From Harriotta raleighana (lineage: Eukaryota), in contig JBNZDD010013678.1 of NCBI GenBank assembly GCA_050575255.1, positions 4,560,753-4,624,752 of the forward strand: a DNA stretch of 64,000 bases. The letters are read 5' to 3'. The notes beneath the pieces are model-generated. The model searched no databases and was not told where the DNA came from. It saw nothing but the letters and a program-made list of their open reading frames with translations. The position numbers and the translations under genes are program-made. Numbering within the stretch: position 1 is the first letter of the stretch; each line of letters begins with the position of its first letter. This document shows, in pieces, positions 9,401-63,400 of the stretch.

Positions 9401-12400
9401 AGTGACCTGAAATAGCAGAAAGGAAAAAACATGTTGAAAATAAATAGTGCTTCTGTACATAGCATGTTTCCCCCTCGTTTTGCTATAAATAAAAAAACGA
9501 CTTTTAAGTAATAAATAATCCTTGCATTTCACGCACAAAATTGACAGTCTATTCTGTAAAGTGTAGTGACTGAGACGTCTCGAAGACATGATAAGGTGCT
9601 ATATCAAATGCAAGGATTATTATTATAGTGCCCTTCATCCTATATACAAGGAAAAGGAAACTGAAGAAAAGAGAAGTTACTAACTTTGGATGTTGTTTCG
9701 GGAATGAGTCTGAGAGTAGAACGAATCCATTTATCCGTGTCTTCCTCGCGTTGCTCAACAACATAACCAAGTATTGGGCTTCCTCCGTCTTTCAGGGGAG
9801 CCTCCCAGGTCAGCTGTACCGATTCTTTGGTCTGATTTGAGCATTGGAGATTGATGGGTGGACTTGGTTTGACTGAAAGAGGGTGAGAACAATCAATGAG
9901 TTTAATGTCGCTGCATTGCAGAATTAAATATGATTTGTGGCAGCACATAATGATCGGATACTTACATATTGGATCCATAATCTTGACAGGATGTGTAGCT
10001 ATACTTGGCTTTCCAATGCCAGCCTTGTTCTCTGCTCTGATACGGAATATATATTCTCTGTTTTCCACAACATCATTCAACTGAGCTGAGAGCTCATCTG
10101 CACTGGTAACCATCGCTACGTCCCATTTAACTGATGTTCTGTCTCGTAACTCAATGATGTAATTGGTGATTTCCGCTCCCCCATCATACTCGGGTGGTTC
10201 CCATGTAACAGTGGCACCAAATTTATTCACATCTTTTATGTCAACATTGATTGGGGCATCGGGTATATCTGTAACAGGATAAAAATGAAATGAGTGATTT
10301 ATTCGTACCAATAGTAGAAGTTATACTGAATTGGTAGTAAACGTGTATTTTTTTTATCCTTACCAAACTTATTCTTAGCTTGAACAGGCACATCGGNCGT
10401 GATTTACTCGTACCAATAGTAGAAGTTATACTGAATTGGTAGTAAACGTGTAATTTTTTTTATCCTTACCAAACTTATTCTTAGCTTGAACAGGCACATC
10501 GGTTTCCACAGGTTCACCTGTGCCTACTCTGTTCCTTGCGCTCACACGGAACAGATACTCCAACACTTTCTGGAGCCCAGTCACTATGAACTCAGTGCTG
10601 TCGGCACGATCAGTGGCCAAGGTCCAAGTCTTGCGTTTTACATCACGTCTTTCTACGACGTACCCAAGGATCTTGCTGCCACCATCGCTATCAGGCTCAT
10701 CCCAGGCGAGACTCACTTCACCATCGTACGTTTCTACAATGTTCAAGTTCTGGATTGGGCCAGGCACATCTGTAAATTTGTCAGAGATAAAGCTTTAGTA
10801 AATGCACTTTAAAAAAGTGTGTTACAAGTAGGCTATAACATTGTATTAATCCTAATAATCCTTGCATTTGTTATAACGCCTTATTCCAGCTTCAAGAAGT
10901 CTAAAAGGGCTTCACGGAATCTACTGTAAAGTGAATTGACTGTATAATTTAAGGGCAAAACGCAGCAGGCAATTTCACACAGAAGTGACCCACAAACAGT
11001 CGCGGATTGCGCGATCAAATATTTTTCAAAAGATGCTTTTCTTTGAAGGCTTTTTTGCCTCCCGGAAAAGCGGGAAATACGCCAATCAACTAACAACTGG
11101 GTTCTACTTACTGCTGGATAACCAAAGGCATGTGGCATAAGAAATTTTGCCCCGCCAGGGAGTGCTCTGACCAATTTCTGTAGAAATGCAAGCAATTGCA
11201 GAGATGTAAACTTACCGATGACATTCAAATTGATGTATGCTTCTCCCTTTCCATGTTTGTTTCTGATGACCACCTTGTACCTTCCTTTGTCGGTTCTCTT
11301 TGGATCTGAAAGTCTATAGCTTGTCATGTCTGCGGTCGTGTCAATGTTCTGATTGGGTAGGCTCACATACTCTGAGGTGGTACTATCTTCCTTGAACCAT
11401 TCGGCTTCACCACGTGGATAGGCATCATAAGGGAGTGACATTGTGAAGGGCTTTCCAGCGTCTGTCACCAGATTCAGATCAGTTATCTTGATGATTGGTA
11501 CAGCTGCAATAAAAGGGAGCACGAGTCAGACACATGTTTAGATTTCCGCTAGATATTTAACACAGCAGAAAACCTTCCCGGGACTGTAGGTATTATTTCT
11601 AGGATGAGGCAAAGACTTGATAACTATTTTATTGAAAGGCTTTAAAAGAGAAGCGCTCTGAGATGCTGTCCGCTGTGGAGGGCGCTATATAAATGGAAGT
11701 TGTTGTTGTCGTTGTTGAGAAGAGTCAGAAGATTTTATTTGATTGAAAATTCCGAAAGGAATGGAACATGAATATTTTTATATGTTTAAATGGTTAAAAT
11801 AAAGGGTTGGAACAATGTAACAATGCACTTAAGTAAGGAAGCGAACACACTACCCAGAGTAACGACGAAGCAGATTAGGGCAGTAAATTTGAGGAGAAAA
11901 AACATGAATGCTGAGCGGTCAAAATATACAGTATTGTGTGTTATTGGAACACAGGTATTTCTTAAAGGCAAAGCTTCACCTTGAAATTTCCAGCAATACA
12001 AATCTGTAGAGCCAATTGGCTTGTGTAAAATAATTAGTTTATTTAATTGGTTTATTTTAGCTTTCTGTTTCCAGTCCTCTACATATATAGTGTGTGTGTT
12101 TGTTCACCTATCTGTACAAAACAACGCCAGGGACTATAAAAATTGTTATTGATATTTGAAACTATCGTACCTGCTAGTTCCAATTTCGCTCTGGCATCTT
12201 TATCCTTGGCGATGAACCTGTATTCGCCCTGATCGCGCGGTTTGATGTTACAGATCTGCAATCTGTGCACCTTCCCTTCACTCATCATTTGATGCTTATC
12301 ACCCTGGACAATGATCATATTGTTTCGTAGCCATTTGACTTCCACTCTATCCTTGTTTAATTCAGCTTCAAAGATCACGTCCGAACTCGGAGCTTCGAAG

Positions 12401-15400
12401 ATATTTTGTGGAGGTCTGATGATCTCAACTGGGATTTCTGGATGGAGAAAAAATAATTATTAGTCCTTCACTACCTAGCTTTCAAGACATTTTGTGTGAG
12501 CGAGCGAGGGGGTGATTGAGGGACGGAGCTGAGGCCTTGCCGGGAAGGTATATAGGCTAAGGTGAGCAGGTGATTGAGGGTAAAACGGGAAGGGTACCGC
12601 TAATAGCTAAAACTCAAAAAGTGACCTCAGCGCAGCGTCACAAACAAAAAAAACTAACCCCGCAACCCCCCGCCACCATTAACAGCACATTAACAATAGC
12701 AGCGCATCAGCATCAACACCTCAACACCACTAACAGCGCATTAACAACTAGATCATTAGCACCTCCGGCAATCAGATCATTACGCCTCCGCCCTCTCCTA
12801 CGCTAAGGATAGGTCACAATGGTAGGGCTGACTTGGCTATTAGTCATCCCCTTGCCATGGCCACACATCCTCTGGGATGATGCCACCCCCTGATCCATCG
12901 CTCTCAGCTCACTGCATGCGTGTTTTGGCTGCCGCCCCGACCAGAGCCTCACCCTAAATGTCTCTCTTCCCACCCCCCTTATCCGCTACTCGAACTCTGT
13001 CCTACTCTCCCTCCTGACCCTCTTCACCGCTTCCCTCTGCTCTAGTCTGGGTATCCTCCGTTAGGCCCATTGTGACACCAGGAGCTGGGTGTCCTGGAGC
13101 AGCCACCCCAACTGTCCCATCATCCACTCTCTCCGCTCAAACCGCCTCTTCAAGGCAAACACCACTTCCCCCTCTGTCATACGTACCCTCCCCACTTCCC
13201 CTCCCTCCTCTCCCCCCACACCTCTCCTACACACCCTCAGATCCTCTTCGCACCACTCTCTCCTCCCTCTCCCCCCTCCAGCAAATCCATCCGCAATGCC
13301 CTCCAAAACGTCCGTTCCCTTTCCAATAAAGTCCTCACTACCTATGACCTCATCCTGGATGAGAACATTGATACTCGGGCTTACGGAAACCTGATGATCC
13401 CGTGCCTCTAGGCGAGGCCTCCCCTCCAGACTACATCTTCCACCACACTCCCTAACCTAAACAACGCGGCGGCTGGGTGGCCATCATCTCCAACACTTCC
13501 CTTAGTCTCTCCTCCTATTCCTCTGGCTGTTTCCCCTCCTTCAAGCACTTCACGCTCTGCCATCCTTCTCTTTCCTTAAAAATCCTTCTACTCTATCGTC
13601 CTCGTAAATCCCCTGGGTCTTTCCTCTCCGATATCTCCCCACTCCTCTCCTCGCTCTAACAATCAGATCATTACGCCCCCACCTCTCCCCTCACCCCCCA
13701 CCCCCTCAGGATAGGTCACAATGGCAGGGTTGACTTGACTATTAGTCACCCCGTAGCCATGGCCACACATCCTCTGCGATGATGCTCTGAATGTCTGCAC
13801 ATCATGGGCGACTTCAACCTTCACCTANTATTAGTCACCCCGTAGCCATGGCCACACATCCTCTGTGATGATGCTCTGAATGTCTGCACATCATGGGCGA
13901 CTTCAACCTTCACCTAAACTCCCCCTGCACCACTTCTTCCGAACTTCACTGCCCTCCTCTCCTCCCTAAACCACATTGACTCAATGACCCACAACCATGG
14001 CCATGCTCTCGACCTCATCATCACCCACGGTCTTGACATTTCTGACCCCACCATCTCGGACAAGGCCATCTCGGACCATTTTCTTTTCTCCTTCTCCCCT
14101 TGCATCCCTCCTTCCTCCACCAAGCCCTCAACTCTAGGCTCCCCCTGAGACTCTCACAGATGCCCTCAAATCCTCTGACCTCCTACCCCTCTGGTCTTCC
14201 GACACAGAGATCCTGAAGCAGCTGTTCAGCTGCTCCACGTTCGCCTCTCCTCCACCTTCAACTCTCCCGTCCCCTTAAATCCAGGTCTATCTCCAAACCC
14301 ACCGCTCCCCCTGGTACAACACTCATCTCCACACCCTTAAACACCAACCCAGGCTGCTCGAGCACAGGTAGCAGAAAATGGGTCTCACGGTTCACCACCA
14401 ACTGTGGCTCGAGCATCTCCATAGCTACCACCATTCCTTGTGTTGTGCAAAAACAACATCTTACTGCTTACTATTCCAACATCATCCTGGAGGCAAACAA
14501 TAACCCCAAAGTCCTCTTTTCCACAATCACCACCTCCTCCGTGCACTCCCTCAAGCCTCCTCAATCTTCACTTCAAATGCGAAGTGTCAGGAGGTCATGG
14601 ACTTCTTTTCCTTCAAAATCCACAAGCGTCATCTTCCTGCCTCCCGTCACCCACAACCATGCCCCTCACCCTCCCCGTCAAAAGCTTATACCTCAACCTC
14701 CTTCCTACAATCCTTCTCCCCAGTCTCTTTTTCCTCCCTCTCATGCACTCTCACCTCCATGAAGCGAACCACCTGCTGCCTCGACCCCATCCCCACCCAC
14801 CTACTGCTCACCCAACTCCCCCTCCTCTGCCCACTGCTGGCTGAAATCATTAACCAGTCCCTCCACAGGATCAGTGCCTGCCCTACTCAAAACTGCTGCC
14901 ATCACCCCCACCTCCTTAAAAACCCTCCCGAGACCCCTCAAACCCCAGCCACTACTGCCCTATTTCAAACCTGCTCTTCCTTTCAAAAGCACTGGAACGT
15001 GTTGTTGCAANTCTCCCGAGACCCCTCAAACCCCAGCCACTACTGCCCTATTTCAAACTTGCCCTTCCTTTCAAAAGCACTGGAACGTGTTGTTGCAAAC
15101 CAACTCTGCGCCCACCTCTCCTCCCACTCCCTCTTCGAACCCCTCCAGTCCGGTTTCTGCCCTGCGCTTGTGAAAGTCACAAACAACATCCTCTCCATCT
15201 GCGACTAGGGCTCCCTCTGCCTCCTTATCCTCCTGTCCGCTGCATTCAACACAGTCAACCACGCCATCCACCTCCACCGCTGTCCTCCGTCATCCACCTC
15301 AGTGGGACTGCACTTGCCTGGTTCGAGTCCTAGCTCACAAACCGCCAGTAGTATATCTCCACAGAGGGCTTTTCCTCCTGCTCTNGCTCACAAACCGCCA

Positions 15401-18400
15401 GCAGTATATCTCCACAGAGGGCTTTTCCTCCTGCTCTCTCCTTGTTACCTGTGGGGTACCCCAGGGATCCATTCTTGGTCACCTCCTCTTCCTCATCTAT
15501 ATGTTCCCTCTTGGGGATGTTATCCGCAGACATGGGGCCCACTTACATATGTACGTGGATGACACCCAGCTCTATTTCTCCACTTCACTTTGCGCCTCCC
15601 ATCCCCCAATGTTCTGTCAGACATCAGGAGCTGGATGAGCGCAAATTTCTTGCAGCTGAATGTTGACAAGATGGAGGCCATACTCTTTGGCTCTCAACAA
15701 CATCTCCATTCGTACTCCATGGCTCTCACTTCCTCCAACTCCCTGGTCTGCCCCTAAAACTCTCTGAACCTGTGCACAACCTAGGCGTCAAGTTCGACCC
15801 CCAACTGTCCTTCCTCCCCCACATCCTGTCCCAAACCAGCACCGCCTTCTTCCACATCTGACGGATTGTCTCCGGCAATACCTCACCCCAAAAGCTGCTG
15901 AAACCCTGGTCCAGGCCTTTGTCACCTCTCAGCTAGACTATTCCAATGCCCTCCTCGCCAGTCTCCCCTCCACCACAATCCATAAAATCCAATTCATCCA
16001 AAACTCTGCCACCCGCATACTCACCCCACCAAACTTCGCTCCCCCATTACCCCAGTTCTTACCAGACTTCACTGGCTCCCTATCCCAGAGAGGATCGACT
16101 TCAAGATCCTCACCCTAGTCTTCAAATCCCTCCACTCCTCTGCACCCCTTACCTCTCTGACCTCCTCTCTCCTCAAACCAGCTCCCATTGCCTTCGCTCC
16201 ACTGGGTCTGGCCTCCTCCTTGTCCCCTGAATCTTCCGCTCCACCCTTGGCAGTTGTGCCTTCAGCCACTATGCCCTGAGGCTCTGGAATTCCCTTCCTC
16301 ACTACCTTCGCCTCGCACCCTCTTTTTCCAGTTTGAGGTCCCAGCTGAAGACCTTTCTCTTCGACCGCGCCTTTAGTCACCTATCTACCCCTCCCTCTGG
16401 CTCAGTCCCGGGATCTGCTATTGTGAAGCGCTCTGAGATGCCGTCCGGCATGGAGGGCGCTATATAAATCAAAGTTGTTGTTGTTTTTGTGCTGCAATGT
16501 TTTTTTTTGTCTAACTGATGACTTGCCTTCAACAAACAGCCTTGCCCTGGAACGCCTATCTTCCACACCACAGGAATATTCACACTCATCATCGGGTCTG
16601 CATTCCCTTACAGTAAGTGTGTGGAAAATACTGTCTTTCTCAAACTGGTACCTAAAAAAAAGTAGCATTAGTAATTGTCCGCAGATCAGTAATATGCAGG
16701 TATGAAAGATCATTTTTTGGTTTAAAAAAACACTTAAAAAATACGTACTTCTTGTTCTCCCTGAGCTCGCGACCATTCCTGTACCATTTCACTGCAACCT
16801 TTTCTTTTGACAACTGACACGAAAACATTGCGTCTTCAAACTCAGTTACAGTCTGATCCTGGAGATGCTGCGTGAAGTCTGTGGGCGCTTCTGTGATAAT
16901 CAATTCACCAACAGATTTGTCCTGTCCTGCTGTTACAGTGTATTCACCTTCGTCTGCAAAGCTACAGTCTTTGATTATAATGGAGTGCTTTTTCTTGTCG
17001 ATTTTATATAAAACTCGCCGGTCAAACGTAATCTCCTGCCCTCCCTTCATCCATGCTAGAGTGACGTTTTCACGGTTCACTTTGCAAGCGAAGGTCACAG
17101 ACTTCTTCTCCATTGTTTCACAATCCTGAAGAGGCTCAATGATCTTCAGTTCCTCCTCTGTTAAGACGAACATTAATATTTAATATCTAAAGTCTTTTAC
17201 GTGCATTATGCGCTGCTGGCAGAGAGCGATTACATATATAATATCTTAACTTTCAAGAAAACCCATTTACCTTGTACTTCCATTTTTGCAGAGCATTTTA
17301 CATGTTCTCCTCTATTATTTGTCAATGCAATTGTGTATGTTCCTTGATCCTCCGTTCGGCAATTCTTAAGTCTGAGAGTGTAGACCAAATCTTTTTGGAC
17401 CAAAACATGTTTTGCGCTATCGAAAATAACCTCATCATCTTTCAACCATTTCGCTCTGGCACCTTCAACATTGACTTCACAGTTGAATACAAGCTCTTCT
17501 CCTTCTAGAACAAACTGGTCTTTGATGGGAGTTATTATCCTGAGGTTTTCTGAGAAAGAAACGCCGGGTGTTAAAAAAACAACTAATTTTTTGATTCGAA
17601 ACATTGATTTAATCTATCTACGAGTAATATAATCTTGAGGACCTACCAATCACTGTCAGATCTGCTGTCGCTCTTGAAGAGGCAACCATTGCAGCATAGG
17701 TTCCTTCGTCATCCATTATGGAGTCCTTAATAACAAGCACTCGTTTATGGCCCTCTGATATAATCTCGTACTTATCCCCGGTCTCAAGCTCCTTGTCACC
17801 TAAGAACCATTTCACTTCATAGGTCTCCTTAGATACGGAGCAAACAAACTCTGCCTTGTCTCCTTCTAACACCTCCTGGTTCTTTGGCCGAGAAGTAAAT
17901 TCTGCTGCCAGTTCTGCAATAAATACAACGATTTAACAGAGCGGGTTAGAATGGGAAAAGTCAAAGAAAATGTGAGAAATACATGTAATAATAATAATAG
18001 TAGAGCAAATTATAAGCTCTAGTTCGTACCGTTGACTGCCAATTCAGCTGAAGTATGAATGCCTTTGGGGAGCCTGCAGGTATATTCACCCACGTCTTCC
18101 GGTTTAACATTATGAATGATGAGAATTCGTTTCTTGCCATCTGTGAGCTGTTCGTATCTGCCGACATCGGGCAGCTCCACGTCTCCCTTGTACCACGTTA
18201 CCTCGGCATCCGGCTTGGAAACTTCACAGACCAGCCTGATGGTGTCTGTTTCGGAAGCTTCAACATTTGCGAGCTTCTTGGTGAAGTCAGCTTCCTCTTC
18301 TGAAAGTGTAAAACAGTACACAAAAGTGGGAAACAACCATATTAATAATAATAATAGTAATAATACCACCATAATATGTACGCTCCCGCAATTTAAAGTG

Positions 18401-21400
18401 ATACAAAACAAAAGTATGATTGTTTACCTAACACTGTAAGCATTCCAGATGTTTTAGCTGTCTTGGCATCGCATTCATATTCAGCTTCGTCATCAAAGCT
18501 ACACTTGTGGATGGTCAACAGTCTCTCGGTACCTTTAGCTGTGATATCATACTTTTTGCCTTTCCTTATTTCCATGCCATCCTTAAACCAGCGAACCTGA
18601 AGCAACAAAATGTTTTCTTCAAGTCAAATGTGTTTGCTCCACAGAAATTCAAACTGCTTTACATTATACAATAATTCACCACCAAAGTTTTCTTTTTGCT
18701 TTATTTATATTCCTCTTTGAATGATCATTTTAAAGTTAAAAAAAACAAACACACACAAACCCACTCACACAAACATAATCCTCAAATGAATCAGTACACA
18801 AACCTTTGCATTTTCACGTGAAACTTCACACACAAATTTAGCAACATCCTTTTCTTTCACTTCAAGATCGGTGAGAGGCTTTGTGAACTCAATATGAGGA
18901 GCTGTAAGCAACAACAACAAAATTACATTTGTAGAGAGCTTTTCATATTGGGAGGACTTCCCAAGGGGCTGAAAAAGGGAAGCCTTGTTAGTAAGTGCAT
19001 ACTAGCTAAGTTATCATGTTGCCACAGAGGATATCAACATTGATGTACATCGATAGGTTTAGATACAAATCTTTCTCTACTTACGTTCCACACTGAGGAA
19101 GCAGGATGTTTTAAAGTCTTTGGAATCACAAGTATACGTTTTAGAATTATCAGGCGTGCAGCCATGGATAATAAGTCTTCTAATTCTTCCTTCTGCAACA
19201 ATATCGTACTGCTTGGACTTAAAGATTTCCTGTCCAGCCTTAAACCATTTCACTTCGGCGTTTTCTCTGGACACTTCACACTCCAGAATAGCAGTGGCCT
19301 CTTCTTCCACGGTCTGGTCCTCCAGGGGTTTAGTAAAGTCGACTGGTGGTTCTGTAACAGATTGATATGAAAATTCAACACAAGTAAACAAAGAATAACA
19401 ACAACAACAACTTCGATTTATATAGCGCCCTCCACACCGGATGGCGTCTCAGAGTCGCTTCACAATAGCGGATCCCGGGACCGAGCCAGGGGCAGGGGCA
19501 GAAAGGTGACCAAAAGCGCGGTCGAAGAGAAAGATCTTCAGCTGTGACCTGAATTTGGGAAGAGAGGGGGCGAGGCGAAGGGAATGAGGAAGGGAGTTCC
19601 AGAGCCTCAGGGCGTAGTGGCTTGGACCCCAGAGTATGTGTCAAGGTAGCAGCTGGAGTCTGACCTGCCAAAACCGCATTGTTCGCTTTTGATATTGTTG
19701 TCTGAACCACACTACCCGCTAACACTTTGGCTTGCAGGGTTAACAGCAGGTTAACAGGGGATGATTTCTCTGCTCCCAGTTACTGGTCTATTCTTCCAAG
19801 TCTTGCTGATGAGCCAGGCTAGGTTGGCTGTGCTGTCATCAGCAGTGCCCTAGAATACAGTACTGCTAACTATTCCATAAGTAAACATCAAAACCTGCAA
19901 CCCCAGTGGGGGAAAACAAATAGAACAAAGCTTCAAAGAATTGTTGGACATCTGTCACTCACCTTTCACAATAAGTTTAGCAGATGTAGAAAAGTCCTTG
20001 GCGGTAATTTTGACTTTTCCTGTTTCAATTAACTGGACATCTCTGAGGGTGAAAGTGTGCACTCTGCCTTCAGCACGAGTAACAACCTACACCAAAAATT
20101 ATTTGAAATGTTAAACTCATTAAATATCTGTTCTGAGCATTTTTAACGCATCTAATGACTTACTAAATAGAAGAAATTTAAGAGAAATTACGCATATTAA
20201 CAAAATGTTATTCTTATTATCATAAATAGGATTGTTTGCAGCTTTTTGAAAGCATTGTTATGTTTGCAAGATCGACCATCGCTTAAATTGAAATGAGATT
20301 AAACAAAAAGTTAAGACATTACGTCACAATTCTGCACATTTTTAAAATTTGCAATAAGATTTCAATAAACCACGACACATACATGTTTAAAGTTAGTTCA
20401 GAATGTTGCAGCTACAATGAAAATTTGTAGAACATTTATTTTCGTTCCTTTCCAACAGGTGTGGTACAAAAATATGATTAGTTAGCCAGTCAAAGCTATT
20501 TGTGGAATCAAACAGCAAGTGGAAACAACTGTTTCTATCAGCTGTTACAAACATGACACAGAAGCACAATCAACACTGCTATCTGTATTTCTCACAAATC
20601 TGTACCTAGATTGAGTTTTCTCTGAAAATACTATTGAACATGAAGGTTATGTAAGGCTTTTTGTTTCTTTCGGTTGACACATATCTAAGTATTAAGTAAA
20701 TTCATAACAGAGTGTACTAAGGGCAGTTTTTAGTGTCTGGCGTTTTAAAGATTGCATTTGTATTTATTTTTAAAATAATTTCCAGCAGTGGACTAGCTTA
20801 ATACTACGTAGAAAAATTCTATCAGGGAAAATATTATTCAAACTATTGGAGCAATGCTTTTAAACAGATTGTAGGAAACGAGAATGAATTGAAATCGACA
20901 TGTTACACTTGTTAGCCGCATGCTGGGGAATGAATGAACATTTCAGTTTAGTTGTTTGATGATCGAGTTGGTTTAATTGATATCAATCAATCAAAATTTT
21001 ATTTATATAGCGCCTTTCACGTCGGGAGGACGTCCCAAAGCGCTGTACAGCCAAGTAGGGGGGGGAGGGCTCAGGGAAAGGAGTAGGAAAAATTGACTGT
21101 ATATTTGTGGGCGAAACGCGGTAGCCAAATTGTTTCTGAGGTTTGATTTCTGGGATACACTTCAGTAAGCAGTAAGCATTAAGCAGTTTTCATGTACATT
21201 TCCCTCCGGAGTGACTCCGAGGGAAACACCTGCTGAATGTAAGGCAATCACTACAAAGATGCTACAAAAACTATAACATAACTCTGGACTCCTACGTGAA
21301 TACTTCACTAGATTTTATCATTGTGTTGCACTGCGGGACATGGCGGTATTATTTTTTTGCTAAACTGATCGGCCCATTATTTCTCCAGATTCCTGCACTT

Positions 21401-24400
21401 TATTCAATAAATTAAACTTCCACACCTTGTTTAAGGGTTTTAACCAGTCAAAACTTTGTTTACAACAAAACTGAACAGCAGATAAAGGAATTGGTGGCTA
21501 GAGATTAAAGACATTAACTATAGAATAAAATGAAGGTTCACAGAAATGCACTTTTTTGAAAACAAATTATAGATGCAGTATTCAGTGCTGCAATTGGCTT
21601 CACAATCAATCAAAAAAAAAATCAAAATTTTATTTATAAAGCGCCTTTCACGTCGGGAGGACGTCCCAAAGCGCTGTACAGCCAAATAGGGGGGGAGGGT
21701 TCAGGGAAAGGAGTAGGAAAAATACATTTCAAGCAGAGGATTTTTCTTGGGACATAAGAATTTCAGTGCAGATTTCAATTGTACCAAACACAGAGAGTAA
21801 AAAAAGTTAATTTTTTTAACATATTTTTGTTGCAGAACACTATCAACCTTATAGTTCTACTCTGTAGATTATATGCAATGTACATATGATTGAGTATGTG
21901 TGTGTTTTTTCTTTTGGAAAATTGGCCTTCTGAAAATGCAGCTCTTGCAATATATCGCTCGCAATAAAAGATTCAGCAATTTGCCCATGTCAAACCGTAC
22001 ATGCAGGCAACTTGTAGCATTTAAAAATAGCCCAGATTGAATGCTTGGAAACCCAAACTTATGCCAAATGTTATCTTATCTTAAAGCCACTGCCTGTCAA
22101 TTGCCTGAAATGGAATTGGAAGCCACCAGAGTCCCTTATATGCAGAATGCTTAGAGATAGACACAGAATCAGAAGAGAAGAAACTTTTGGAATGTAGACT
22201 GGATAACTAACCACAGTGTTATAGTATATAGTATAGTATATGTAGATAAAGAAAGAAAAAACAAGTTACCAACATCAATGTTGGTATATAATTTTTTTAA
22301 ATAAAATGCTAAATGATCAATGTTTAAACGATTGAAATGGTCTTGCATAAAACAATTCCCTTAGGGTCATGCATGTTGAAACAAATTGAACACACACAAA
22401 TGAAATGACTTACCCTGTCACTGGATTCCAACTTAGTGTCCTTCAAAAACCACTCAACAGGAATACCCTCATATGAGAGCTCACACTCGAAGGTAGCAGA
22501 ATGCCCAGCTACAACAGTCACATCCTTCAGGGGTTTGAGTAAGCCAATGACTCGTGCTTTGGATGTGGGGGAGAACATGGTTAATTCTGCAGTCCCCCGA
22601 GAGGCTTGTTCATTTTCACCTGAACCTCATCTCAGCTCCGACCCAAGAGACCAACCCCCGTGTGCCTCACTCCCAGGCCCACCAGAAGGAAAGAGATAGA
22701 CATTCCAGCTATATTTGCATATTATCCTCCTGACTTCTAACAGTCAGCAGTAAATCTGAGGGGCATCTGCTTGAGCTGCCAATCACATCTGCTCCCATGT
22801 TACTACATAAGGTATGTCCTTTTCAAAATAGCCACACCATTGGTTACACAGCAAATTCCTCTCTGACAACCGCCCGTTGCCGTCAATCAACCCTCCCGCA
22901 AAAATGCAGACTTGAATATTATTTTGCCTCCAAATTACAAACTCAGCAAAAAAAAAGCAAGTTAATGTGTTCCAACACTGTGTTTCCTTGTTGGATAATT
23001 ATCTGTTAATCATTTTATAAGCAATTTACTTTAATACAAAACCTACTTTTACTTTAGAAACTCAAGAGAGTGGTGAATGGAATAAGTAAATACAGTACAA
23101 TGTGGATTTACATTTACTGAAGCGTCTTTCACTTCAAGAGGGCTTCCTAAGGCGCTTAGGGATAGAAGCAAATGAGTGGGAGGATTAAAGATGAGGGAGA
23201 GCAAGGTTAGGGAATGTCTTGAGATGGATACGGAGCAAGGGGAGGGAGCGGGTTTGAGGGACTGTGGGATGGAGTTCCAGAGAGTGGTAAAAGATAAATT
23301 AATTATCTGAATTGAAAGAATACAGTAAATTGCCTTACATGGTTATAAAGAATAAGGTAAATTGTCGCGGGGAAATTTCCATGGGGAGGTTGCCTGTATA
23401 TGTGGAATTGTCAGTCTGGTTTAATACTCTTAAGTGTGGTGATGCATTTCTGCAAGTGTCAGACAGACAGCCTGGGTGATCTCATATCATTTATCAAGAA
23501 CTGATGACCCAAAACATGCATTTGTGTTTAACAGGCTTATTGTATATAAACGCTATTTATTAAACATGTAATGAAAAGTGATCTACCTTTGACTCTCAAA
23601 TGAGCGTTGGATTTGGCATTTGCAGCTTGGAAATCAACTTGACCAGCTTGACCCAATGGTACATTGTACAGAATAAGAATATGCTTAGTGCCTTCCTCCT
23701 TAATCTCACAATCCTAAATTATAATGTTAAAAAAAAGACCATTAATACCATATGTACCGTACAATTTTCCCGATAAATAAAAGTAAAACACTTGTTTATA
23801 AATATACGGATTAGCACTTACAGGTGATTGTCTTACACTTTCCCCCTTCAGCTTCCAATTGCCGTGCACATCTTCTTCGGAGATTTCAACTTCAAAACGA
23901 GCAGTTTCGGTTTCTGTGACCTCAACACTGTACAGTGGCTTCACTATCTTAATGTCACGCTCTGAAATAAAATTCATTCAAAGTGTTAATTTGCCAGAAA
24001 AATCAAAACAATTCACTGAACGCAAGGGGAATGCAAATGGTACACACACTATAAACTTCTGATTTGTATCATTCATACCTTCGATGTTCAGCTTGGCAGT
24101 AGTTTTATCAAAACCGCAGTCACATGAAAACTCTCCCTGGTCGGTCTTTAGCGTTCGTTTAATGATTAAGATGCGCTTCTTGCCGTCGGTCTTAAATTGA
24201 ACGTTCTTTGAAGGAGTCAGTTCTTTTCCGTCCTTCAACCATTTAACTGGTGCTCCCGCTTTGCTGACCTCACATTGGAATGTAACTTCATCTTTCTCTA
24301 CCGCCGTGTAGTCCTGTAGATTCCTGACAAAGTAAGGATCCCCCTCTGGAGAACCATAAAGAAAATAATTAGTAGACGCGAAGAGAACAAAGGAACATTT

Positions 24401-51400: not shown

Positions 51401-54400
51401 GATCAGACTCAATTGTTGAAACGATTTGAAAACCGCATTGGACAACATGAAGTGCACACATGATGAACAAAACTAACACAAAGGTAACAATTGCTTTTAA
51501 GCACACATTCTTCAATCCCAAACAATGACACTGAATGGTGACCTCTCTGCATCAAGATTCATTGTACAGTAAAAGCCCATTTATCCGTGACGCGATGAAC
51601 CGGAACATCCGTTTAACCGGCACCTCAAAAAAGTCCTGATTCGTTAAACCAGAAGTTATCTGGCAGAATAGTGGTGGTGGCATTTAATGAATCGATTGTC
51701 ATATGAGAGTACTGTGCAGGTATGTCAGCTGCTGCTCGGACAGCCTGAAAATCGCGCTGCCGTTTTTTTTTCCTTCAGTAGCGGCTGCCATTGCAGAAGT
51801 TAAGTATGAAACATAAAGTACTAATACAATATTCTGTTATTATAGTATCTGGTTATTACTGTATTTAGTCTATTATTTATATGGTACAGTGTACAATATT
51901 TACAAAAACGTACCTATACAATATTCTGTTATCACAGAATCTGTTATTACTGTATTTGGTCTTATTTATATGGTACAGTATACACATTTATAATAAAGTA
52001 CCCACACAATATTGTTATTATCTGTTATTATTTAGTCTATTATTAATATGGTATGTATTAAAATAATTTTTAATTTTAAAATTATTATTTTTAAAAAAGT
52101 TCATCAGGCACTGGCCAGGTCCCGTGGGTGCCGGATAAATGAGCTTTTACTGTATTAGCATTCTGAGACACAACCAGCACGAAGGGTGCTGAATATATGC
52201 AAACACTTCTCGTTGCATCTTAGTTTAAATTTACCATCTTCACAATTATTCTATTTGTTTGCTTTTCCAACTCAGTTTGATGCAAAACAATCTCGTAAAT
52301 ATTCATCAAGTCAATTCAATTTTGCAACAAGAATTGGGTGCAATCAGATGGCAATGGTCTAACTATAATTAAAGAAGATCAATATCAGGGAGGCTTGATA
52401 TGTAATATTAATGTTTGTGTGAAGTCTTTTTAAAAATGGTTTACCTTTAACTGGAGCGACCTCCTCCTTCCTTGAGACAGGAATTAGTTTAGGTACTTCT
52501 TCAACTGCTTTCAAAGGAACCTTGCCTACTTTAAAGAACATGAACATTTTGAGATGAGATTCACTCAAGAACTTAATTGCCAAGTTACATATTTGAATGA
52601 CAGATCTAGAAAAAAACAAGACTCACAAGAGACTAAACACACTCCTCTCTAATTTGATACAATTTTCTGAAAGTGTATGACTTACTCCCAGGGTAACACA
52701 ATAAACTAAATGAGGCTGAGAAAATATACATACCTTTGAAACTTCTGGAATGTATAGATATACAGAGAAAGTATTTTAGGCAGTGTCACAATATATCAAT
52801 TGNGATATTTGAATGACAGATCTAGAAAAAAACAAAACTCACAAGAGACTAAACACACTCCTCTCTAATTTGATACAATTTTCTGAAAGTGTATGACTTA
52901 CTCCCAGGGTAACACAATAAACTAAATGAGGCTGAGAAAATATACATACCTTTGAAACTTCTGGAATGTATAGATATACAGAGAAAGTATTTTAGGCAGT
53001 GTCACAATATATCAATTGAAAATGTGTTGAAATTTTATTAGAATTATATTAAATGACTATTTTCCACTCATTGAACCTCATGCCAAAGTGATGTTAAATT
53101 CGATGAAACATCGTAAGTTCAGCAAATATCTTGCCTGCACTTNCGTGTTGAAATTATATTAGAATTATATTAAATAACTATTCTCCACTCATTGAACCTC
53201 ATGCCAAAGTGACGTTAAATTCGATGAAACATCGTAAGTTCAGCAAATATCTTGCCTGCACTTTAAAGCAACTATTCTTAATATTAAAATATTAATTATT
53301 ACTATTTCTAGCACAACAAATGACAGAAACACAAACGGAAAACATAAACGCTGACTTTGAAACACCGTAACAGAACAGAACATTGTGGCGATTAATTTTG
53401 CTACAAATAAGAATGAGCAGCAGAGTTTAAGGGATGACTGAGACATGTAGTTTTCATTCTCATGGTGGAAACAGACCCATCAATACACTGAATAAGAATC
53501 AAGGTTTTATACCTTCAGTTGGAGGAATTTCCTTCTTTCTTGCAACAATAACTGGTTTCACTTCTTCAGCCACTGGCTTCTTAGGAACCTCAGGCACTTT
53601 AAAGAATATTATTGTTTAAGAAAAGATCCACTCAAGACAATGAGAACTTTGTAGACAAAAAAAAATGATCCAGACATACATAGCAGTTAAAATTGCCTCA
53701 AGATGACACATTTAGTGAGCAGTTTTAGGAACGAATAACAAGGATTTGGGATGACAGCTGGAATTAATAGGCACCCTTCAACACTGATACAACAAAGGGT
53801 CGTATGAGATGAGATGCAAGAATTATTTGAAATGGTTTAGTGTCACAAATAATAATTATTTACCCACATATCCAAACTTCAAAGCAGGTCAGCTTATAAA
53901 ATTTGGTAAAACATATCATAATGTCCATTGGTTTGGGGTTGAATTCTGCTGATGATTATCTTCTTATTTACAGATTTAGTGAGTTTGGCAGTTAGTAGGT
54001 GAAAATTCAATCTGGGTCTCGGTTTACTCTATTTATGCAGCACTTTAGCATATTCTTAAACATCTCTTCTATTTTGAAACAGTTTTTGTGTAAATTGTTT
54101 TTAGCGCTATAGAAAATCAACTTCAAAGTTAAGACTAAATTCACCAATTTGCCAAATGCTGCACACTTTAAAATGCTTCTTAAATGGAGGAATTCTAAGG
54201 CCAGTTGGGAAAGTTTGGTGTCCTAGAATGTGTTCGAGTTGAATTCTTGGGAAGTCTGTAGTCCTGCTACAATTTCCCCTTGAAAATATAAGATTACTGC
54301 TATTGAATAAAATATGAAAGATACAAACACACAGATATGAACACAAAATGGGACATCACAACACTGCAACAGAACACAACACAAATAAAGATTGACACAC

Positions 54401-57400
54401 AATAAATAACAAGTGAATAAAAAAAAATGGTGGTTAATTCCACCAAAACAAGAAGTTGAGAGATGAATGAAAGAAGAAATAGGGAGACAGTTTTCATTTC
54501 TAAAGATGGGCACTCGATAATGAGCAAGGTTTTCTAAAATCTCTCTCTTAGTTTTGTACCTTCAATTGGTGGAGACACCTTTCTTCTTGGAACAGTAACA
54601 GGTTTGACTTCTTCAGCCACTGGTTTCTTAGGAACCTCCGGCACTTTAAAGAATATTAACGGTTTAGGGAATGATTCGCTCCAAAAAATATATGGAAAGC
54701 TCAACACAAAGTAGTAACATTTAAACATCACAGACAAAACCAGCAGCAAATAAGATCAGAAGAAGAACCAAAAGTGGGGTCTGGACAGAGGTTTAAGAGA
54801 AGACTGTGAAATGTAGACACCGTTTTTATTTTAATGGTGGGAACTTGTAGCCACACTGATTAAAGATGAAGATTTTATGAAATCTCTCTCTTAGTTTTGT
54901 ACCTTCAGCAGGAGAAATCTCTTTTCTTCTTGGAATAGTGACAGGTTTGACTTCTTCAGCCACTGGTTTCTTAGGAACCTCCGGCACTTTAAAGAATATT
55001 ATCGTGTAAGAATAGATTCACTCCAGAAAACATACAGAAATAACAGGGGACGTACAAATACTATCCCACAGTAACATGACAAACATGAAANGGCAAACAT
55101 TGACTGAAGACAACACACTGTATCGGACTAAAACTATGAATAATAAATCAAAGTAAAAGTTTATTTAAAAAATAATGTGTCATGATGTGATATTCAAAAG
55201 AAAAAAATTTGGTCACTNAGCAAACACTGACTGAAGACAACACACTGTATTGGACTAAAACTATGAATAATAAATCAAAGTAAAAGTTTATTTTAAAAAT
55301 AATGTGTCATGATGTGATATTCAAAAGAAAAAAATTTGGTCACTCAATCAACCCCTGTTTGTGGGCCATTGTTCTGCTGCGTTTGTCGCCACATAATATA
55401 CTGTCAATTCACTTTATAGTATATTCTGCAAAGTCTTTTGAGATGTCTCAAAAACATGATTAGGTGCTATATCAAATGCGAGCATTATTATAATATTATC
55501 ACAAGCTGGACAAAACTGACTCTTCTGTATTGAGAGAATACACATTGAGCAAATGATTTGAGAATATTGTTACCCTCTTTACAATTATGATACATTTTGC
55601 AGTTTGGTTTTGTTCAAGCATTTCCTAATATAATCCTACCTAGTTTGTAATTAATGTTGGATATAATTTCTAGTGGATTTTTAATTTACTGAAGCATTAT
55701 GAGTTCTGCAAACATTGAAATATGTTGCAAGAAATTGTTGCTTTGCAAGTTATCATAAAATGTTACCATATTACAACTACTGTTCATCCTAACACCGACA
55801 AAGTAAAACATAAACTCACACTTCCCAAAGACTGTAACAGAACATCAAAGAATAAATATGGTGTTGATTCATTCCACCAGAACAATGACCAAGAAATGAA
55901 GATCCTTCTTGGAAGAATTCTAAGATGAATGGGAACTTGTAGTTGCAATAAAATTTGCTTTGTACCTTCAATCGGAAGAACCTCCTTCTTTCTTGGAACA
56001 GTAACTGGTTTCACTTCTTCAGCCAGTGGTTTCTTAGGAGCCTCCGGCACTTTAAAGAACATTAGCATTTTAGAGAACGTTTCACTCAACAAAATACACA
56101 GAAGGTTGAACACACAAACTAACATTAAATGTCACAGACAAAACCGATAGAAAATAAAATCAGAAGAAGAACCAGAAGATGAATCTGGACAGTTGAAGAG
56201 ACGTTTGTGAAATATAGTCACAGTTTTCATTCTAATGATGGGAACTTTTAATCACACTAACTAAGGATGAAGATTTTAGAAATTCTCTCTTTTAGTATTA
56301 TACCTTCAGTGGGTGGAGACACCTTTCTTCTTTGAACAGGAACTGGCTTGACTTCTTCAGCCACTGGCTTCTTGGGAACTTCCGGCACTTTAAAGAATAT
56401 TATTGTTTTAGGGAATGATTCACTCAGGAAAATATACAGATCTTTTCCCACAGAGAAGTAGTAACTCAAGGAAATGTGGACATGACAGACAAAACTAATC
56501 ATAACATGACACAGTGAATCAACAACAAAAGGAGGATTATTATTATAACTTTGCATAGTTACTCATTTGAAACAAGATCTCTAGTTTTGACAATTAAATG
56601 TTATTTCTACATTTGTATAGCACTTTTAACTTTGGAAGGATGTCCCAAGATACTGGACAATAAGGAAATTGGGATGGAGTTCCAAAAGATGGGGTGAAAG
56701 AGGCTGAAGGCCCAACAACCAATAGTGGGGAGGGCCGGGCGGTGGATGTGGAGCAGATAGGAGCTTGCTGAGCAGAGGGAGCAGACAGGTTGATATGGAG
56801 TTAAAAAGTCACAAAAGTATGGAGGAGCAAGCCCGTGGAAGGCTTTGAAGGTAAGGACAAGGATTTTGAACTCTATCCTCTGGGAGATGGGGAGCCATTG
56901 GACCCTGGCGAGATTGGGGTGATAGGGTCCTGGAACCTGATGTGGGAGAGTACACAAGCTGCAGTGTCTGGATGATCTGCAGCATGTGGAAGGAAGAGTT
57001 GGGAAAGCCAACAAGCAGGCAGTTAGCATAGTTGAGCCTAGAAGTAGTGGAGGGACTCAGAGATAGAGGCAGTGATGGAGGTGGGGGAAGACAGAAAGGT
57101 TCATGGTACGGATGTGGGGCGGAAAGGACAGTTGGGGGTCAAAAAGTCACCAGGAATCTGGACTGGCTCTGAAAATAATACAGGTTCTGCTCCACTAAAT
57201 AATGCTAATACAGAACAAATCAAACAGTTCCACATACAAGATGTCCACTGTTTAAAACAATGTGAAAAAAACACACACAAAGATGTCAAACATGAAACTC
57301 CAATATCACTGTGAATAAATAACGTGATGATTAATTTCACCAGAAGCAGATTCTGGGCAGAGTTTGAGAGAGGAGCAAGATAAACGGGGATCAACTTTCC

Positions 57401-60400: not shown

Positions 60401-63400
60401 TTTCCAAGTGGGAGTGTAGTAAGCTAAACACCCATAACCACAGTCACACATTTCATAGTGGCCAGAAAATCGCTCAATAAATTGAACAAGAATTTGGCCC
60501 AAGAAATTGACAAGAATTAGCTGAAATATGCTGAATTTTTTGCATGTATTTTGTAGTTGCTGAATATGACAACATGAAAGATATACACAAATGTAAAAAC
60601 ACAAATACACAGGTGTCACGACAGAACAGACATCAATTAATGAATACTGTGGTGATTAATTCCACCACAACAAAAAACAGAAGCTAAGACTGGACAAGTA
60701 TTTCATAAACACACAAGAAACATGGACAAATTTTCATTGTTATGATCAGAACAAACCACTGCAATGATTTTTTATTAAAAAAAAATTTGTACCTTCAGTG
60801 GGTAGAGCCTCCTTCCTTTTAGAAACAGTAACTGGTTTCACTTCGTCCACCACTGGCTTCTTAGGAATCTCTGGCACTTTAAAGAATATTATTGTTTAAG
60901 AAAAGATTCAGCCAAACATATATATAACATTGAAGGCAAGTAAACCAGGATAACAAGAAACATCACAGGAGAATGAACTCAAGGCAACATAAATTGGCGA
61001 ATCAAAAATATTAACTCAAAACAAAATCACTTGTATTGTTACTTTGCTCAGTCTCTGCAATTTTTACAAAAGCTATTTGCACTAATGCATTAGAAATTTG
61101 ACTATAATTAAAAATTCAGCCCATGATTTGAATAAAATATATTTTTTTAAAGTATTTTAATATTACATTATGAATAATATGTTGAATCTACCAGTCATTG
61201 ACAGTCTTCAAATAAGAATTGTTTTTAATGATCGAATCATGCTCGAAGGTGACATCATATCAGCCTATAAATTTCCTGGGTGGAGAAGAGTAAGGTAACC
61301 CCATTGGTGACAAAGCCACCAATTTAATTGGGTACAATAAATTGACCAACAACTTGTCCCATGGAATTGTAAAAGTATGTTAACTGAAATATGCTACACA
61401 TTTTCTCTGCGTTACTGCATATGATAAACATGAAAGATACACACAGATGTAAAACACACAAACACATGAGTAACACGAACAAAACAAACATCAATGACTT
61501 AATATGATGTTGATTAATTTCAACACAACAAGAAGAACCAGTAACAAAGACTGGACAGATCTTTGAGAGACAACTGTGAAATGTAGACATCATTTTCATT
61601 CTTATGGCGGGAACAGACCAGAGCACAAACAAAGAAGGAAGATTTTATAAAATCTCCCACTTGTTTTGTACCTTCAGTCGGAGGAGATTCCTTCCTTTCT
61701 GGAACAGTAACAGGTTTCATTTCTTCAATTACTGTCCTCCTAGGAGCTTCTGGCACTTTTAAGAATATTAGCATTTTAGGAAATGATTCATTCAAGAAAA
61801 TACAAAGAACATTGAACACACTAATGTCACAGACAAGACCAACTGATGCTAGATGAAGAACCAGAAGCTGAGCCTGGGCAGAGTTTGTGAGACGACAATG
61901 AAACATAGACACAGTTTTCAATCTAATGATGCGTATATGCAGCCATACTGAAAATGTTATGAAGTCTCCTATTGTTTTCGTACCTTCAGTCGGAGGAGAC
62001 ACCTTCCTTCTAAGAACAGTAACAGGTTTGACTTCTTCAACCACTGGTTTCTTAGGAACCTCCAGCACTTTAAAGAATAGCGTTGTTTAAGAAAGGATTC
62101 GCATAAGACATGTAAACCACAAAAACCAAGACAACAAGAAACATAACAGGAAAGCTTGTCAACATAAAGTGTTGTTACCCTGGACATGCTCTGGAAGTAA
62201 TAGGGACTTTTTGCCTTGATAAGTTAGAAANCAGGGACTTTTTGCTTTGATAAGTTAGAAATTTGACTATAAATTACTCTACACTGCTGGCAATCGGGGC
62301 TTCAGTGTTTCAGTGTTTCCTATGCTTTGCAATTCCATCCCGGAATCCCTCCCATTTACCCCTCCTTTGCCTACTTCAAGACCTGACCGAAGACCTTTTC
62401 CTTTGACTGTGCATTTGGTCACCCACCCAACCCCNTAGGGACTTTTTGCCTTGATAAGTTAGAAATGTGACTATAAATTACTCTACACTGCTGGCAATCA
62501 GGGCTTCAGTGTTTCTGCCCCTATGCTTTGCAATTCCATCCCGGAATCCCTCCCATTCACCCCTCCTTTGCCTACTTCAAGACCCGACCGAAGACCTTTT
62601 CCTTTGACTGTGCATTTGGTCACCCACCCAACCCCTTGCCCTGCACTGTTGATTCCATCCACCAGCTGGAATACAAACACTTGACTGTCTAGCACCTTGG
62701 AGCATCCATCTGAATTAAAAGGCACATTATAAATTTATTTTGATGTTTGTTTAATACGACATTAAATAATGCAGTGAGCCAACTGCAATCATTGGCAAAG
62801 TCACCAATTGAGAATTATGAATTGGGTCTAACCTGACACCATATCAATATGTAAATATCCTGGTTGATATAGATTAATGTAACCAACTCCATCGGTGATA
62901 AAGTCACCAATTTAAAGGGGTTTAGAAAATCACCACTCAATAAATTGACTACAAAATGTGTTGCACCAACATGACAGTAGTTAACTGAAATATATTAAAC
63001 TGTATGTTACAGTTACTGCATATGACAGCATGAAAGATATTCACAGACGTAAAACACAAACACATGGATGTCACAACATTGTAACAGAATAGAACTTGGA
63101 TGACTAAATATGGTGATGATTTATTCCACCACAACAAGAAGAATCAAAAGCAATATCTGGACAGTGATTGAGAAATGCCTGAAAAATGTAGACACTATTT
63201 TCATTCAAATGATGGAAACAGACAGCCAAACTGAGTATGAATGAAGATGTCATAAAATCTCTCTCTAGTGCTGTACCTTCAGTTGGAGGAATCTCCTTCC
63301 TCCTTGGAACAGTAACAGGTTTCATTTCTTCAACTACTGTCCTCTTAGGAGCCTCTGGCACTTTTAAGAATATTAGCATTTTAGGAAATGATTTATTCAA

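Follow-up and report, generated by a model that had tools for sequence, protein, structure and literature searches.

The titin gene of the window

The minus strand of the window, by which we mean the whole 64-kb stretch of DNA that was analysed, is part of a vertebrate titin gene. The exons follow one another in the order PEVK, tandem I-set Ig and Ig/Fn3, collinear with known titins. The features of the gene and of the intron studied here are as follows.

~63700 to 33000 (−): PEVK exons of titin
From 31190 (−): distal Ig series of titin
23587..23713 (−): titin exon orthologous to zebrafish ttna e115 and human exon 239; encodes the second half of Ig domain I95 and ends at a GT donor (e115 primer match)
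22557..23586 (−): putative Cronos intron, 1030 nt (donor and acceptor, flanks matched to published e115/e116 primers)
23108..23334 (strand not assigned): remnant of a degenerate interspersed repeat, within the intron's 5' half (relaxed self-blastn)
22414..22556 (−): titin exon orthologous to zebrafish e116, mouse e223 and human exon 240; encodes the first half of Ig domain I96 (Pfam I-set and primers)
19963..20086 (−): next exon, encoding the second half of I96, common to the full-length and the predicted Cronos transcripts (exon mapping)
Below ~10800 (−): Fn3/Ig exons of the A-I junction of titin

The original prediction dated Cronos on the condition that the DNA came from a cartilaginous fish. 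This lineage was borne out by the I96 domain, which is 94% identical to that of elephant shark (5 of 88 residues differ from the reference), compared with 76% for frog, 76% for starling and 69% for grenadier. A tree of I96 grouped the window with elephant shark with support of 95/92; it was built from 5 rows and 88 columns, with five partial records left out and without any shark or ray among the rows. By its sequence, the titin of the window is that of a cartilaginous fish close to elephant shark, most likely a chimaera of another species than the elephant shark of the reference. Cartilaginous fishes have a single titin gene, compared with two in zebrafish (PMC12241362).

In the literature consulted, Cronos is described for zebrafish, mouse and human only, and a 2026 paper names the same three. 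In zebrafish its transcript starts 110 bp before ttna e116, in mouse 257 bp before e223 and in human 256 bp before exon 240 (PMC4720518). Published primers place the corresponding intron here. The zebrafish e115 primer matched 21 of 27 bases at 23617, a site unique in the window, and none of 300 shuffled primers equalled it. The e116 gRNA and nested primer encode, by eye, the same peptide as exon 22556-22414, which the junction primer matches as well. The elephant shark primer SCi94F matches 16 of 18 bases at the start of this exon by eye, and this match, together with an offset of two in the numbering of PMC12241362, identifies the exon as human I96, in agreement with the label first given to it. 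The exon had been predicted to be the Cronos exon, the one before which the human promoter lies (exon 240), and the e115/e116 primers uphold this. This primer evidence identifies 23586-22557 with the Cronos intron, which is e115-e116 in ttna and 239-240 in human.

Its donor, acceptor and frame are all intact. There is no stop across the four exons of 23713-19085, the Ig and Fn3 exons mapped after them are open, and the gene runs beyond the window. An artefact of assembly was rejected, since no N lies closer than those at 15385 and 52803, and 22.4-23.6 kb is free of tandem duplication. A scan of 22300-23700 gave 0 Rfam matches at E values up to 0.1, and a structured RNA in the intron was rejected. 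A PDB search with the I96 exon returned 22 sequences, of titin and other Ig domains and none of them close; the best E value, 7.6e-17, came from three weak domain matches. All 7 relaxed self-blastn matches of the intron elsewhere in the window arise from the remnant at 23108-23334. The 3' 550 nt of the intron (22557-23100) had no self-match in the window, so a repeat origin of the candidate promoter region was rejected.

Several other features of the window were observed. Two copies of a short interspersed-repeat tail, related to the remnant 23334-23108, lie at 21700-21630 and 21060-20990 in the intron after exon 22414-22556. The exon from 17157 to ~16750 (−) encodes, uninterrupted by an intron, a whole Ig domain together with the first half of the one after it. 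An E/K/P/V-rich open frame of 863 codons at 35585-32997 (−), apparently one very large PEVK exon, contains internal repeats of ~162 and ~336 nt and gave no Pfam match; it exceeds the expressed PEVK segments of elephant shark, which are 372-774 aa long (PMC12241362). The many short PEVK exons of 63690-43000 (−) are near-identical and have similar flanking intron sequence, which suggests recent tandem exon duplication. A degenerate non-LTR retroelement lies at ~14500-16450 (+) within a titin intron, antisense to titin (RVT_1 match at 15174-15635, E 1.7e-6), and a strong C-over-G skew over 12001-16000 suggests more retroelement sequence there. Near-perfect two-copy tandem duplications at 13740-13916, 14925-15098, 15333-15437, 52589-53018, 53024-53263, 55093-55344 and 62233-62636 are centred on or beside single Ns and resemble contig overlaps left unmerged at gaps of the assembly.

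The predicted start codon and its seven-residue leader

The 3' end of the intron carries the following features.

22557..22578 (−): predicted Cronos-specific coding start, ATG and leader MFSPTSK, overlapping the pyrimidine tract and the AAG acceptor (primer and leader comparison)
22579..22584 (−): branch-point-like YTAAY with its adenine at 22581, 25 nt ahead of the exon (match to the consensus; use putative)
22581..22630 (−): two short out-of-frame uORFs, 22630-22616 (4 aa) and 22613-22581 (10 aa) (frame reading)

As originally described, an ATG at 22578 (−) lies in frame 22 nt, or seven codons, ahead of the acceptor at 22556, and the same bases (22557-22578) serve as pyrimidine tract and acceptor and as possible coding sequence. 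The context of this ATG had been called good. Under the Kozak rule it is adequate and not optimal, with the purine A at −3 and T at +4. Of 40 titin acceptors in the window, 9 have an open in-frame ATG within the 60 nt ahead of them, and 3 of these ATGs also have a purine at −3.

The distance from the ATG to the exon is that of zebrafish ttna (ttn.2) Cronos, where 5' RACE placed the Met 7 residues ahead of e116 (PMC4720518). The two also share the intron, a similar leader, YTAAY before the ATG, the AAG acceptor and an upstream ATG in the leader. With its register fixed by PMC4720518, the zebrafish Cronos primer matched 15 of 22 bases here (binomial P ~3e-4); in the same register the 41 other titin acceptors scored 6.8 on average (sd 2.3) and 11 at most. 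The primer translates to MSSPES, and 4 of the 6 residues that it covers are the same here, the best of 42 acceptors. When scanned window-wide without a fixed register, the zebrafish and mouse Cronos primers tied at 5 and 4 places, and of 300 shuffled primers 292 and 249, respectively, did as well, so these primers are informative only in the register and intron set by PMC4720518. Two of the eight Cronos-leader oligonucleotides in that paper were scanned, chosen after the resemblance had been seen; a comparison of the others by eye brought out no likeness beyond the branch-point motif.

Protein models from other fishes carry the same leader. A barramundi model reads through the intron end with MSSPQSK, identical to MFSPTSK at 5 of 7 residues; none of the other 41 acceptors exceeds 2/7 against it, and a control intron end in that barramundi model gives 0/7. 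An elephant shark model (UniRef P0005) begins with an identical MFSPTSK (7/7), while P0006 represents the spliced junction. Elephant shark is already identical at 4 of 7 residues at the control intron end, so its 7/7 is modest evidence. P0005 was rejected as proof of a transcript start, being an automated two-exon fragment that ends on a donor read-through stop. Leader conservation rests on four taxa; unnamed protein matches (37/44 and 69/73) were left out of the comparison.

The conserved stretch coincides exactly with the 3' splice region, and the ATG could be a passenger where a constitutive exon conserves its branch point, pyrimidine tract and acceptor, with no Cronos here. The YTAAY fits a branch point, in-frame ATGs ahead of 9 of 40 acceptors show that such codons occur elsewhere in the gene, and upstream of the branch point no conservation with the zebrafish leader is visible by eye (dr_altprom_f matches 8 of 24 in register). 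Even the two synonymous differences from zebrafish within the leader are T/C swaps, which splicing would tolerate too. Against this, other titin acceptors have equal splicing needs and score no higher than 11 of 22, the barramundi control intron end is not conserved, and zebrafish uses the same bases as a demonstrated start (PMC4720518). Splicing needs explain neither the ATG nor the purine-rich AAG end; an A at acceptor −3 is found at 2 of 42 titin acceptors. We therefore regard a signal for splicing only as unlikely.

An AG at 22587 could also act as an alternative 3' splice site (acceptor 22586), adding an in-phase 30-nt extension to the exon, so that the leader residues would be an optional linker of full-length titin. 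The phase is the same and the frame is open, but the AG is preceded by a G-run instead of a pyrimidine tract, and the models from elephant shark, frog, starling and Lucifuga use the normal splice site. In zebrafish a stop lying three codons ahead of the ATG closes this frame, as read by eye from overlapping primers and a 38-nt morpholino distance (PMC4720518). Such an extension is very improbable. We consider it highly probable, from the published primers and the leader comparison, that in this cartilaginous fish the start at 22578 is orthologous to the known start of titin Cronos. What supports Cronos in this sequence is the conserved position of the ATG and the seven-residue leader, not the list of promoter motifs.

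Adenine 22581 (−) seemingly has three roles, as branch point, as the −3 base of the Kozak context and as the last base of the stop of the 10-codon uORF, whose TAA lies two bases ahead of the main ATG. If branch point and Kozak −3 base share this adenine, the ATG would be held at a fixed position. The two uORFs had been raised as a caveat. Both are present at their predicted positions, and further upstream ATGs lie at 22703, 22720, 22766, 22788, 22798 and 22808; the leader would hold 2 upstream ATGs with a proximal start and 5 with a start at 22773. As an objection they carry little weight, since upstream ATGs are seen, by eye, in the Cronos-specific probe primer of zebrafish and in the TSS-proximal primers of mouse and human too.

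Candidate promoter and transcription start

The original prediction placed a cluster of muscle-type promoter motifs upstream of the ATG. Motifs were scanned by their consensus definitions, and those found are listed below.

22690..22900 (−): candidate proximal promoter, of putative function (motif cluster)
22875-22870 (−): GC box, one of 6 in the window, an addition to the original list
22843-22839 (−) and 22779-22783 (+): CCAAT (motif scan)
22831-22822 (−): MEF2-like site with one mismatch (motif scan)
22791-22786 and 22769-22764 (−): CAGATG E-boxes (motif scan)
22750..22773 (−): stretch resembling, at 16 of 24 bases, the mouse primer (near-identical in human) that sits at the mammalian Cronos TSS or close to it; weak candidate for a distal start region
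22720-22713 (−): perfect octamer, one of 8 in the window, also an addition
22716-22709 (−): A/T box (motif scan)
22700-22707 (+): MCAT (motif scan)
22694-22699 (+): GATA (motif scan)
22622-22617 (−): third E-box, likewise an addition

All of the motifs first described are where they were said to be, and the GC box stretches the candidate region slightly past its original limits. As single motifs, most of them are within chance: a broad E-box, MCAT, GATA, CCAAT and MEF2 were each reached in 16-51% of 2000 dinucleotide shuffles, and one-mismatch MEF2 sites number 548 in the window, or 2.6 per 300 nt. The A/T box at 22709-22716, which had been described as TATA-like, is off the TATA consensus pattern. 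MEF2, TATA, GATA, CCAAT and MCAT were accordingly rejected as single-motif evidence, being at chance level or off consensus. Less common in the 2000 shuffles were two CAGATG E-boxes (3.7%) and the octamer (2.0%). The combined cluster was reached by 0.5% of shuffles and by 6 of 1274 sliding windows, at 3 loci, for a composite that was defined after the region had been seen. The 300 nt ahead of the exon are 48% GC, and the range at other acceptors is 27-51%.

The start of transcription had been predicted near 22680. That position rests on the non-consensus TATA, and the weak mouse-primer match points to ~22775 instead. In zebrafish the TSS is mapped at −110, and the leader above the branch point cannot be aligned by eye with that of the window (PMC4720518); applied here, the zebrafish distance gives ~22666. 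Mouse and human TTN Cronos share the intron. The mouse TSS-proximal primer matched 16 of 24 bases at 22773 (−217), the best of 42 acceptor-upstream regions (15 or fewer in the others) for a primer chosen post hoc; 58 of 5000 shuffles within the intron reached this score, and window-wide it ties with 3 other places. We take this match as a weak lead to a distal start. The mammalian Met lies 12 residues upstream of the exon (PMC4720518), so that the leader differs in length from the 7 residues here. A zebrafish-like start at ~22670 and a mammal-like start at ~22775 appear about equally likely.

E-box, MCAT, GATA and octamer sites suit an enhancer as well as a promoter. The start may thus have been inherited while the motifs belong to an intronic muscle enhancer, or to a promoter that has faded, with little Cronos made. 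The lack of a consensus TATA near the predicted start would fit this, as would the near absence of Cronos from some adult muscles (PMC4720518, PMC7478974). On the other hand, the window and elephant shark agree in the ATG, in the frame and in 7 of 7 residues, and the GC box and CCAAT lie upstream in promoter-like order. A vestige or enhancer of this kind seems quite unlikely; if it were the case, the dating of Cronos to the jawed-vertebrate ancestor would still hold. An active promoter in 22690-22900 remains the reading that we prefer, and we infer that both the transcript and the protein are made in the cartilaginous-fish lineage.

Predicted isoform and its meaning for titin evolution

In the proposed scheme, the full-length titin pre-mRNA would be spliced from 23587 to 22556, and the last 22 bases of the intron would act as splice signal. 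In muscle, a second promoter, probably TATA-less and lying within the intron's 3' third, would start transcription between ~22815 and ~22665. The Cronos transcript would continue unspliced into exon 22556-22414. Ribosomes may bypass or complete the short uORFs and then initiate at 22578, which would add MFSPTSK ahead of I96; in the frame observed, the K-A junction is the same as in the spliced form. The predicted product would be without the Z-disc part, most of the I-band and the PEVK and would keep the distal Ig domains, the A-band part and the M-band part. By analogy with mammals, where Cronos is ~2.2-2.3 MDa (PMC7478974), it may be of similar size. Cronos is high in developing muscle (PMC4720518) and supports A-band assembly in zebrafish (PMC4720518), and by analogy the product here may help assemble or stabilise thick filaments, chiefly in developing and fast muscle. 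In mouse, Cronos does not rescue loss of full-length titin (PMC7478974), and its necessity is disputed (PMC7478974). It has been invoked for the higher frequency of pathogenic effects among titin truncations downstream of the Cronos intron (PMC4720518, PMC5068190).

The literature searched contained no report of Cronos in cartilaginous fishes, most subscription papers lie outside it and an earlier report is possible. A literature search for "Cronos", titin and shark gave no match, the matches listed for a titin evolution paper do not mention Cronos, and the word is absent from the supplements of PMC12854356 in the portions available. The elephant shark connectin/titin paper covers N2BA, N2A and Novex exons, with "Cronos" absent from the main text as available (PMC12241362). 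That species nevertheless shares with the window both the exon (SCi94F) and, in an automated model, the leader (P0005, P0006), and the Ensembl-type model already starts at the Cronos Met without naming Cronos. The rest of the titin isoform plan is already known to be common with elephant shark, so Cronos here is an expected extension and no surprise.

Invertebrate projectin and twitchin are likewise titin-like products of the A-band only, but they come from separate genes and have no internal start (PMC12198301, PMC4720518). It is conceivable, though doubtful, that Cronos is an ancient second transcription unit in titin, possibly a surviving start of this A-band-only kind. Its leader M-x-S-P-x-S-K, kept for ~450 million years in fishes, would then be a functional tag, such as a proline-directed phosphorylation or docking site, replaced in mammals and locked by the shared branch-point/Kozak adenine. 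Such a unit would bear on the question of whether titin arose by fusion or fission.

The conserved start suggests, at the level of sequence, that Cronos dates to the jawed-vertebrate ancestor. A slowly evolving genome with a single titin would be useful for footprinting the Cronos promoter, the control elements of which were found described nowhere in the literature searched, as far as its text was available. If Cronos is retained in cartilaginous fishes, it would be as old as the jawed vertebrates, it would have been under long purifying selection, and the seven-residue leader of fishes would be the ancestral one.
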